Below, one piece after another: positions 22,907-36,773 of a stretch of DNA of 50,454 nt. Within the stretch, counting starts at the first letter, position 1. Each line of letters opens with the position of its first letter. The position numbers were made by a program, and so were the translations under genes. The stretch covers positions 1-50,454 of the forward strand of contig JANOTI010000018.1 in the NCBI GenBank assembly GCA_031416255.1, read 5' to 3'. The notes under the pieces were generated by a model. It saw only the letters and a list, made by a program, of their open reading frames with translations. It was not told the origin of the DNA and did not search any database. The stretch is from Sphingomonadales bacterium (GTDB taxonomy: Bacteria; Pseudomonadota; Alphaproteobacteria; Sphingomonadales; Sphingomonadaceae).

Positions 22907-23425
22907 TTACGCACCAGGCAACCGGTAATAATCAGCCAAGCGGTCCAGCGCGATCCGCAGCACGAGCTTACCCGAACGTGCGGGCCAGCCCATCGATTTC
23001 TCCGCCACCGGCATAGCCTCGCCCGCGCAGATTACGCGCCACGCGATGTCGGACAGATCGCGCCCTAACGCCGCAACACCGCCATCGAAACGCTGCTTTG
23101 CATTCAACATCCGGTCGGTCGGATTGCCATGCGATGGCGCACTTCGTTTACCACGCGCCATCGCCATATGCTCCCAAGACATCGTTACACGCGGTGCCAG
23201 CCCACCCTGTTCAAAATCACTGCGCAGTTTTTCACCAGCCAAAAACTGGCGGTCGGTCAAATGACCATATGTGTGAAGCCAGGCTAAAGGAGACTCAGCC
23301 AAGTTTACCGTTACGGTTCGTTTGGGGCGTTTCGAATGGCTGCGACCGAACTCAGGATCGGGTAAAGCACGCTCTACCAATGGCCTTGGATCTTGAAACA
23401 CTGGGGCGGTCGATTTTTTGCGCAT
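22907..23425 (-). CDS. DUF6456 domain protein (GafZ / GafA C-terminal-like GTA activator candidate)
   Basis: NLAESPLAWL..HL..RQFLAGEKLRSDF and E..MGWPARSGKLVLRIALDRL motifs; AAGGAG RBS. Confidence 0.8.
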   Translation of the reverse strand: MRKKSTAPVFQDPRPLVERALPDPEFGRSHSKRPKRTVTVNLAESPLAWLHTYGHLTDRQFLAGEKLRSDFEQGGLAPRVTMSWEHMAMARGKRSAPSHGNPTDRMLNAKQRFDGGVAALGRDLSDIAWRVICAGEAMPVAEKSMGWPARSGKLVLRIALDRLADYYRLPGA

Positions 23426-23439
23426 ACTATCTCCTTTAG

Positions 23440-23504
23440 ACGAATCATCACAAACGACTTGCCAATGACGTGCGTTTGTAGGACAGTAAAAAACCTATTT
23501 GGTT
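23440..23504. promoter_or_regulatory. Divergent DUF6456/XRE control region
   Basis: ACGAATCAT 23440-23448; ACAAACG/CGTTTGT inverted repeat 23450-23479; TTTGTAGGACAG 23475-23486; AACC-N5-GGTT 23492-23504. Confidence 0.65.
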
Positions 23505-23514
23505 GGAGAAAGAC

Positions 23515-24078
23515 ATGCTCAGCCGCGTTCGCGAAGTGCGCAAAGCCAAACGCCTCACCCTGTTCGACGTTGCCGAACGCTGTGATCCGCCGACAACAGC
23601 CCAAACCATCGGACGTCTGGAAACAGGCATGCGTACATTGTCACTAGGCTGGTTGAACCGCATTGCCGGTGCACTTGGGGTTGATGCCAGCGAACTGGTT
23701 CAATTGCCCGATCAGCAAGAGCTACCCGTAGCAGCGTATCTTGGCGTCGATGGGGCACAAGCTCCTGCAAAGGCCGATCTGCTGCTTGCACCGCGCCTTC
23801 TAGGCAAAATGCTGGGCTTACGCGTTACTGACAGCATTGGCGATTACCGGCGCGGGGATGAGCTTTGGTTAGAGCAGCTATCGCCTGAACATTTTGGCGA
23901 AGCGCTGAATTGCGATGTTCTGGTGCCCCGTCCAGCAGGGCGCTTTCTCTTTGGTCGGCTGCTAGGGCGCGAAGATGGCAAGTTGCATCTGCTGCCACTG
24001 GCGGCGGGGGCAAGACAACAAGTCGTGGCTGATCCTGTGTGGATCGGGCGCGCCGTCAAGCTTGTCCGCTCGCTCTAA
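23515..24078 (+). CDS. XRE-family HTH transcriptional regulator with S24-like C-terminal domain
   Basis: VREVRKAKRLTLFDVAE..TTAQTIGRLETG.R.LSL.WL..IA.ALGV; start at ATG 23515 after GGAG. Confidence 0.9.
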   Translation: MLSRVREVRKAKRLTLFDVAERCDPPTTAQTIGRLETGMRTLSLGWLNRIAGALGVDASELVQLPDQQELPVAAYLGVDGAQAPAKADLLLAPRLLGKMLGLRVTDSIGDYRRGDELWLEQLSPEHFGEALNCDVLVPRPAGRFLFGRLLGREDGKLHLLPLAAGARQQVVADPVWIGRAVKLVRSL

Positions 24079-28604: not shown

Positions 28605-28681
28605 CGGGACGTAGCGCAGCCTGGTAGCGCATCACACTGGGGGTGTGGGGGTCGGAGGTTCGAATCCTCTCGTCCCGACCA
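28605..28681 (+). tRNA. tRNA-Pro (GGG)
   Basis: CGGGACG/CGTCCCG acceptor stem, anticodon loop CT-GGG-GG, GTTCGAATC T-arm, encoded CCA; 77 nt. Confidence 0.97.
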
Positions 28682-35543: not shown

Positions 35544-35614
35544 GCGCGCACTCTCCTCAGCAACTGTTTGTATGTGCACCTTCATACGCCATTCACGCTA
35601 TCGGGCAACGCAAA

Positions 35615-35632
35615 TTTAATCGTGTGATTAAA
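35615..35632. promoter_or_regulatory. Inverted repeat TTTAATC-N4-GATTAAA upstream of the acyl-CoA dehydrogenase operon
   Basis: Perfect 7-4-7 palindrome in an AT-rich intergenic region. Confidence 0.45.
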
Positions 35633-35682
35633 GTTTATTGTTACTAGCCAACTTCTTCCCCATACTTTTTTTGGATTTTTCT

Positions 35683-35720
35683 CTGTCCTACAAATAACCA
35701 CATTGGTTATTATGATTCGT
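35683..35720 (+). promoter_or_regulatory. Putative GH108-holin promoter/operator
   Basis: CTGTCCTACAAA 35683-35694; AATAACCA-CAT-TGGTTATT 35693-35711; -10-like TATGAT 35711-35716; ATGATTCGT 35712-35720. Confidence 0.7.
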
Positions 35721-35751: not shown

Positions 35752-36300
35752 ATGGACAAGGCAAATATCAACGACCTGATTGAAGAACTGATCGAACGCG
35801 AAGGCGGCTATGTGAACCATGCTGCAGATCGCGGCGGCCCGACCAACTGGGGTATCACCGAAGCAGTTGCGCGGCGTCAGGGCTATGTCGGCGCTATGCA
35901 CGCAATGCCAAAAAGCGATGCCGCGGCGATTTACAAACGGCTGTATTGGTTATCCCCGCGCTTTGATGCGGTTGCGGAACGCGCGCCAAGGCTTGCCGCA
36001 GAAATGTTTGATACCGGCGTCAACATGGGGACCGGCACAGCAGTAGGCTTTCTGCAACGCGCGCTGAATGCTCTCAACCGCAACGGCTCTGATTACACCG
36101 ACATTTCGGTCGATCGCGCCATCGGTTCTGCCACAATCGCCGCGCTCGACGCGTTTCTAAATAAGCGCGGCTCTGGCGCAGAGGCCGTTCTGTTGAAAGC
36201 CGCCGAAGCACTGCAAGGCGCACATTATTTGAAAATCGCTGAAGCGCGCCCTTCACAAGAAGCCTTTGTCTATGGCTGGCTCGCCAACCGGATTGGCTAA
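35752..36300 (+). CDS. Glycoside hydrolase family 108 muramidase with C-terminal peptidoglycan-binding domain
   Basis: EGGYVNH..DRGG.TNWGIT catalytic motif, FDTGVNMG, F.YGWLANR. Confidence 0.93.
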   Translation: MDKANINDLIEELIEREGGYVNHAADRGGPTNWGITEAVARRQGYVGAMHAMPKSDAAAIYKRLYWLSPRFDAVAERAPRLAAEMFDTGVNMGTGTAVGFLQRALNALNRNGSDYTDISVDRAIGSATIAALDAFLNKRGSGAEAVLLKAAEALQGAHYLKIAEARPSQEAFVYGWLANRIG

Positions 36301-36359
36301 TTCAGCACCATTTAAGGTGAGGCTTTAGTGGGACCTTCCAAATATTACGGAGAAAAAAC

Positions 36360-36773
36360 ATGCCCTTAATCGAAACTCTGATCGGCCCACTTGCGGCCCT
36401 AATCGACAAGCTTATCCCCGATCCTAAAGCCCGCGATGCGGCCAAGCTGGAGCTTATCAAGCTGCAAGGCGGCCAAGACCTAGAGACCCTGCAAACGCAA
36501 CTGTCCGCGATCCTTGCCGAGGCACAGGCACCAGATCCATGGACCAGCCGCGCACGGCCTTCATTCCTTTATGTGATGTATATTATCATTCTTTGGTCGT
36601 TGCCGATGGGCCTGATAGCCGCGTTCCGCCCACAAGCTGCTACCGATATTGCAACGGGAATGAATGCCTATCTGTCTGGCCTGCCAGAGCCGCTTTATGC
36701 ATTATTCGGTACCGGATATCTTGGCTATACAGCGGCACGGCAGTGGGGAAAGGTTAAGGGCGTGGAGAGATAA
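36360..36773 (+). CDS. 3TM holin (GTA-release holin family-like)
   Basis: IDKLIPDP, EAQAPDPWTSRARP, hydrophobic helices, YLGY..R..GK..G tail; directly after the lysin. Confidence 0.85.
   Translation: MPLIETLIGPLAALIDKLIPDPKARDAAKLELIKLQGGQDLETLQTQLSAILAEAQAPDPWTSRARPSFLYVMYIIILWSLPMGLIAAFRPQAATDIATGMNAYLSGLPEPLYALFGTGYLGYTAARQWGKVKGVER

Follow-up and report, generated by a model that had tools for sequence, protein, structure and literature searches.

A lysin-holin cassette with a two-box promoter, a probable GTA release locus in a sphingomonad

We describe a lysin-holin cassette in a 50,454-nucleotide stretch of a Sphingomonadales genome (the window; assembly GCA_031416255.1, contig JANOTI010000018.1), which is probably the release (lysis) locus of a GTA, situated apart from the head-tail cluster and, judging from its promoter, switched on together with the GTA by a DUF6456/XRE regulator pair via two boxes. 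It is a real, conserved and selected lysis cassette, known in kind but new in lineage, and is linked to the GTA by a promoter code that we did not find described. A domesticated GTA release module had also been favoured in a first-pass annotation of this DNA, and this view gained support from the presence of a GTA cluster in the genome, a box common to the cassette and the terminase promoter, purifying selection, and lysin decay that is confined to capsid-less genomes. RcGTA-like clusters are known in Sphingomonadales (PMC5721377). A literature search, which covered few subscription papers, found no published account of sphingomonad GTA lysis genes or promoter boxes, although the homologue tables of PMC5721377 and PMC9765227 may already include the genes described here.

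The cassette and its setting

An intact EGGY-type muramidase without signal peptide, followed by a holin, had been called in the first-pass annotation, and both open reading frames were recovered as called, with profile matches above the cut-offs (Table 1). Against Pfam profiles, the lysin scored 89.3 bits for Glyco_hydro_108 (cut-off 21.2) and 57.8 bits for PG_binding_3 (cut-off 24.6), and the holin 97.3 bits for GTA_holin_3TM (cut-off 24.8) over profile positions 2-123 of 123; the latter also matches the holin family phrog_3427. The EGGY motif corresponds to lysin residues 17-20, E17 and T31 align with E14 and T28 of TtsA (TtsA residues as given in PMC6996933), and the catalytic set is kept in nearly all intact lysins of the genus (E17 64/65, D26 65/65, T31 65/65). 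The N-terminus of the lysin is not hydrophobic, with a maximum 19-residue hydropathy of 0.82. Strong hydrophobicity in the holin is limited to residues 69-87 (hydropathy 2.08), accompanied by an N-terminal segment (1.44) and a weak C-terminal one, the 'three membrane helices' being the family name of this holin, and its predicted structure is all-helical in a poor model (pLDDT 64, pTM 0.33). Neither gene shows an indel or new stop where covered in four sequencing runs of four studies, two of which cover the whole cassette stretch in one contig.

The flanks are metabolic (acyl-CoA dehydrogenases, a 2H-phosphoesterase and an alkyl sulfatase) and, as the first reading of this DNA had also held, free of phage genes: the window has no integrase, its ORF lists contain no capsid or spanin-like gene as read by eye, no spanin was found 3' of the holin, and the two tyrosine recombinases of the genome are on contigs other than that of the cassette. 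The description as an 'orphan' cassette, in turn, is true only locally, because a GTA head-tail cluster is present elsewhere in the genome, on contigs other than this one. The closest relatives are named Sphingorhabdus or Sphingomonadales. Upstream of the divergent acyl-CoA dehydrogenase operon, at window positions 35603-35640, we noticed a near-palindromic TTTAATCG-TG-CGATTAAA-like site, which is also present in relatives where this operon adjoins and is likely a separate operator.

Table 1. Coordinates of the features discussed, numbered from the first base of the window.
Feature	Position	Strand	Basis
DUF6456 protein, 172 aa, GafA/GafYZ-related candidate activator, 12.3 kb from cassette	22907..23425	-	domain profile
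DUF6456 promoter: box B (23491-23505) then box A (23485-23477)	23477..23505	-	
XRE helix-turn-helix protein, LexA/cI-like C-terminal fold, start possibly ATG 23515; candidate RogA-like repressor binding box B	23503..24078	+	
tRNA-Pro, between DUF6456/XRE regulator pair and cassette	28605..28681	+	
Box A, TGTCCTACA, 5' of lysin; putative activator-dependent promoter element	35684..35692	+	
Box B, palindrome TAACC-N5-GGTTA, 5' of lysin; putative operator	35695..35709	.	
GH108 N-acetylmuramidase (lysin), PG_binding_3 domain, 182 aa, no signal peptide	35752..36300	+	ORF, profiles
Holin, PF11351 GTA_holin_3TM, 137 aa	36360..36773	+	ORF, profile

The GTA head-tail cluster of this genome

Contig C206 holds one capsid and one portal match, in the gene order terS-like, terL, portal, DUF6127, protease and capsid. 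With the intact cluster of genome G091 as query, connectors and tail tube were located on C229 and tail genes on C122, beside ompA as in relatives, and all three contigs have host flanks. The tail hub gene is present by tblastn, the GTA_TIM profile gave no match in the genome, and for tail genes without a Pfam call the names are those we presume to apply. Two tail genes are frameshifted in the assembly; as both indels are absent in 4/4 sequencing runs, a decay of the GTA in this organism was rejected, and one of the four runs has a different single-base insertion. The portal gene on C206 (L065:2389-4873, minus strand) carries a DNA/RNA non-specific endonuclease domain (PF13930) as a C-terminal fusion, and a 173-aa ORF comes next; such a layout is that of a polymorphic nuclease borne by the portal, for which the ORF may provide immunity. 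In G217 and G091 the portal is unfused and 388-396 aa long.

Two promoter boxes shared with regulator and GTA genes

At the lysin promoter no consensus sigma-70 promoter was found; box A occupies the -35 position (GTCCTA, 17 bp 5' of TATTAT at 35708-35713), and TTGACA replaces it at the same position in loci L056 and L059. A motif common to the cassette and the DUF6456 locus, as claimed by the first-pass annotation, was recovered as CTGTCCTACAAA, which occurs three times in the 2.59-Mb genome, two of these being the lysin and DUF6456 promoters. Box matrices were built from 37 lysin promoters of other genomes and none from this genome. Only 3 of 2.58 million positions scored at least 19.6 bits with the box-B matrix, namely those at a lone small-terminase-like (terS-like) gene on contig C187 (a phrog_4044 match), at the lysin, which ranks second, and at the GTA terminase promoter. 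The site between DUF6456 and XRE is among the best eight box-B sites of the genome, and the two best box-A sites are those of DUF6456 and the lysin.

The same arrangement recurs in relatives. The holin lies directly 3' of the lysin in 44/62 related loci, and holin-adjacent lysins with enough upstream sequence carry box A in 39/43 and box B in 40/43 cases, whereas both boxes are absent from 12/12 lysin copies in prophage context. At a score of at least 11, box A was found at 20/21 lysin loci of other genomes (control 0) and at 28 of the 30 best DUF6456 loci (control 0), with box B at 22/30 of the latter (control 2). In a set of 80 family genomes, the 30 best terL loci had box B at this threshold upstream in 19/30 cases compared to 1/30 in the control; in 26/30 it stands a few bases 5' of TTGACA, followed by a conserved TCGTCACGCT, and box A was found at the GTA terminase promoter in 0/30. 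Within the genus, box A was present at 76/76 and box B at 75/76 promoters, counts that are partly circular because the matrices were trained largely on this genus; the circularity spares the box results for the GTA promoter and DUF6456.

Other exact two-box sites that were examined lie 5' of terminase-like genes, a small ORF or a non-coding stretch. The last is a conserved region of ~170 nt without clear ORF (L287, L289, L304), with a tatC-like neighbour in two cases and no match in Rfam. Lone terS-like genes (phrog_4044) with the same two-box promoter, far from the GTA cluster, are found on C187 (L066:476-1282, minus strand) and in L295 and L299, and occur also in genomes that lost the GTA cluster.

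The alphaproteobacterial LexA box has the consensus GTTC-N7-GTTC. That box B is such a box was rejected for the genus, in which GTTC-N7-GTTC is absent at this cassette and was found at 0/74 box-A sites; it occurs elsewhere in the genome, including at recA, where the box-B score is -0.4. Five distant lysin promoters (L040, L041, L068, L071, L089) have a perfect GTTC-N7-GTTC 3' of box A, which suggests that some lineages may have placed the lysin under SOS control.

The DUF6456/XRE pair and a proposed mechanism

Box B of the DUF6456 promoter abuts the ribosome site of the XRE gene, which is divergent from DUF6456 in 30/30 loci. The predicted structure of the XRE protein (pLDDT 90) matches the lambda and 186 repressors and LexA. 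DUF6456 genes are described as gafA homologues (PMC9765227, PMC9638019), which are known across GTA-bearing orders (PMC9765227), and in 21/34 genomes the distance between DUF6456 and the holin is no more than 30 kb. We infer that the XRE protein binds box B and that DUF6456 acts at box A. The XRE protein would then, bound to the palindrome, keep the DUF6456 gene, the GTA operon, the terminase-like genes and the cassette off. Upon its relief, DUF6456 would act at box A, the non-consensus -35 element, and boost both its own gene and the cassette, leading to an ON state in a few cells, in which the holin would let the signal-less muramidase reach the wall, so that the cell would lyse and DNA-filled particles would be freed. 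Since the cassette shares its promoter signature with the GTA particle genes and the regulator pair, it likely serves to burst the cell for this purpose. Sphingomonadales GTAs are known mainly from genomes; the boxes and the DUF6456/XRE pair offer a direct handle on GTA production and release in a third alphaproteobacterial order.

Spread, selection and modularity

The holin family is present in 249/301 genomes of the order and in 176/206 of the family, with a single match in every listed family genome. In comparison with seven relatives, the lysin has a dN/dS of 0.06-0.14 and the holin one of 0.012-0.032, both far below 1, and the neighbouring dehydrogenase gives 0.017-0.096 (six pairs); lysin and holin are under strong purifying selection. 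Conservation and dN/dS had been proposed as checks in the first-pass annotation, with a patchy distribution and decay of the prophage-remnant type named as an outcome that would refute its inference. A decaying prophage remnant without host function is highly improbable, as no patchy spread was found and decay is seen only where the GTA was lost. The holin is single-copy in the family, the conserved host-type promoter is absent from true prophage copies, DUF6456 often lies close by, and the window is free of integrases. Points in favour of a remnant are that both genes have phage homologues, that a tRNA-Pro is found directly 5' of the cassette in some relatives, and that prophage and cassette lysins are intermingled in a lysin tree, which was a quick search with 51 rows, one of them (L046) wrongly labelled as prophage. 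In this tree, lysins of Mu-like prophages cluster together with a host cassette lysin from a related genome (L025, L028, L068; support 98), hinting at a possible exchange between prophages and cassette.

The two genes are separable. Nine of 30 holin loci are without lysin, 8 of these 9 keep box A ~60 bp 5' of the holin, and a GH108 match is absent in 17/35 strong-holin genomes. Conversely, in other genera the promoter and the lysin are retained but the membrane gene next to them is a different one, and ORFs behind lysin-only copies appear spanin-like by eye but gave no PHROG spanin match. Among holin-negative family genomes, terL is still matched in 21/30, and terL and DUF6456 are also absent in 8/30. 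Given the terL-bearing genomes without holin and the strong-holin genomes without GH108, the pair is neither required by every GTA nor limited to GTA carriers. In many genera a lone holin stands behind a two-box promoter in a genome without GH108 (L067-L096; G039, G232). The strict two-box pattern missed the promoters of five holin-only genomes because the spacing is 2 bp there, and a relaxed pattern recovered 4/5 of these holin promoters together with two other sites; no substitute hydrolase was found at the relaxed sites, of which one of the two other sites was read. A different layout is present in G261 (L168:5938-7299), where a small holin-like ORF and Rz/Rz1-like spanins come after another GH108 lysin, all surrounded by host genes; this genome has no match to the present holin, terL or DUF6456.

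A holin next to a signal-less peptidoglycan hydrolase, without a spanin, is also what is expected for non-lytic holin/hydrolase (type 10) secretion as in Salmonella TtsA or Serratia ChiW/ChiX, in which the lysin would loosen the wall locally and periplasmic cargo would leave. The best solved relatives of the lysin are Sen1395 (E 9e-52) and TtsA (E 1e-44), the DAP-binding aspartate of TtsA (D118, PMC6996933) is invariant as D121 in 65/65 intact genus copies, and type 10 systems are also described to act in subpopulations (PMC9527704). However, ordinary phage endolysins are equally close to the lysin (50-59%), and for this reason the likeness to TtsA is not diagnostic. Moreover, no linked cargo was found in 62 related loci, the downstream sulfatase being present in 1/62 with flanks that vary between genera, and the two-box sites examined elsewhere are without recognisable secreted enzyme. 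The secretion route, which the first-pass annotation had offered as an alternative to GTA release, found no support, given the changing neighbours and the lack of a cargo that accompanies the two genes, and we regard it as very unlikely.

GTA loss and cassette decay in the genus

Of 81 genomes of the genus, 38 gave a capsid match and 76 a lysin match; many of these genomes are metagenome assemblies where an absence may be a gap, and kin among them are not independent. The lysin is intact in 35 of the 38 capsid-bearing genomes (at contig ends in 2, not found in 1), in 15 of the 17 capsid-less genomes that retain remnants of terL or the tail hub (broken in 2) and in 16 of the 26 from which capsid, terL and tail hub are all missing (broken in 6, not found in 4). 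Broken lysins amount to 8/39 in capsid-less and 0/35 in capsid-bearing genomes (Fisher p 0.006, kinship ignored), and broken holins to 4/39 and 1/35, respectively. DUF6456 is kept in 42/43 capsid-less genomes, and 3/3 genomes with a broken DUF6456 also have a broken or missing lysin. Co-occurrence with GTA and DUF6456, another comparison put forward in the first-pass annotation, is in line with a GTA function in that broken lysins are confined to capsid-less genomes and broken DUF6456 genes to genomes with a broken or missing lysin. The strongest argument for the GTA as the source of selection on the cassette is this gradation in decay.

The intact copies in the same genomes can be read differently, with the DUF6456/XRE switch and the holin, plus the lysin where present, as a self-useful module for programmed lysis or envelope release (free DNA, vesicles or public goods from a sacrificed minority), which would have the GTA as one client and would be selected after particle-gene deletion. 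In support of this, the 16 genomes without capsid, terL and tail hub that have an intact cassette, among them the single-contig G327, also keep the boxes and DUF6456, as do nearly all capsid-less genomes for DUF6456; G039 and G232 have holin and DUF6456 without a capsid, terL or lysin match; and the constraint on the holin equals that on the neighbouring metabolic gene. Selection was analysed by pairwise dN/dS in 18 sister pairs, one of them saturated, and intact copies showed no rise of pN/pS in capsid-less pairs (lysin 0.134 v 0.164; holin 0.065 v 0.080; 5 and 8 pairs). In a group of seven genomes with the GTA locus collapsed to <2 kb, the holin is intact in 7/7 and the lysin in 5/7, with a low pairwise dN/dS of 0.01-0.10 and 0.04-0.18, respectively.

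A single ancestral deletion in these seven genomes was rejected by alignment, which revealed different deletion endpoints within the group and a microhomology artefact, and 'selection after GTA loss' is consequently not established. The GTA remnants of the group also have a low pN/pS (terS 0.10, last tail gene 0.22), and L319 (G301) and L320 (G122) share a deletion scar with 99.3% identity across 301 bp although their genomes are 93-95% identical nearby, so that the deletion allele seems to have been exchanged recently between species. Differing endpoints, low remnant pN/pS and the near-identical scar point to recent, partly shared deletions, and the low dN/dS of the cassette may predate the loss of the GTA. 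With broken cassettes clustering in GTA-less genomes, albeit uncorrected for kinship, a self-useful module is unlikely as the explanation. Also unlikely is the wider proposal that a switch of GafA-like activator and cI-like repressor together with the holin has outgrown the GTA, surviving repeated particle-gene deletion and working in many genera without GH108 as a family-wide lysis or release module. Internal deletions of the GTA cluster recur, after which only a few kb separate the terminase, at one end, from tail-hub sequence (L157 of G217; G350, G235), and in G217 the protease gene runs straight into NlpC/P60. In one genus, about half of the species have lost the capsid but still have the switch and the lysis genes, which is relevant to the question of why GTAs are retained or lost.

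Comparison with known systems

Like TtsA and Sen1395 of Salmonella, the lysin is a GH108 two-domain muramidase (~50% identical) without signal peptide, in which the catalytic Glu and Thr as well as the DAP-binding Asp are conserved; at the position of the TtsA specificity residue N166, 61/65 genus lysins have Gln and 4 have Asn. Unlike TtsA and type 10 secretion, it comes without linked cargo and is tied by its promoter to GTA genes. ZliS of Zymomonas is likewise a GH108 member. It is named as activating levansucrase expression and secretion (PMC3712917). The one GH108 protein examined in G261, a small-genome family member, belongs to another subfamily, is accompanied by Rz-like spanins and has no significant BLAST match to this lysin.

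With regard to control, the XRE protein resembles RogA of Caulobacter crescentus in its architecture of helix-turn-helix and S24-like repressor domain (PMC9632790), with a predicted fold like LexA/cI, and the candidate activator belongs to the GafA family as does GafYZ. For CcGTA, a degenerate -35 at target promoters is also described, along with a conserved sequence that separates -35 and -10 in the GTA promoter (PMC11150451), the position taken here by the conserved element 3' of TTGACA. In contrast to RogA, which binds GGAA-N4-TTCC, box B reads WWCC-N5-GGWW and is located at the GTA and lysis promoters themselves. Caulobacter is described as being without holin-endolysin and as lysing via LypABC (PMC13236601).

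The closest parallel is the pair rcc00555 (endolysin) and rcc00556 (holin) of Rhodobacter capsulatus, a separate locus on which the release of RcGTA is described to depend (PMC5026251, PMC3423380) and which GafA induces (PMC9638019). Both pairs lie outside the head-tail cluster among host genes and are retained by vertical descent, and both hosts have an RcGTA-like cluster as well as a regulator of the DUF6456/GafA type (PMC5026251, PMC9638019). The present pair differs in that the lysin reaches 67.5 bits against NF040573 (cut-off 240), a family that we infer from the cycJ synteny in PMC5026251 to mark the rcc00555 group, has 29% identity to a cycJ-linked NF040573 member and is joined by a holin without significant match. 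The promoter boxes differ as well, with no CtrA box recognised, and here the promoter can stay while one or the other of the two genes is lost or replaced. Our best reading is that the cassette would work like rcc00555-556 but forms a separate lineage, not to be filed as its orthologue. Together with the other lysin lineage of Rhodobacter and LypABC of Caulobacter, this suggests that the release machinery was recruited separately in each order.
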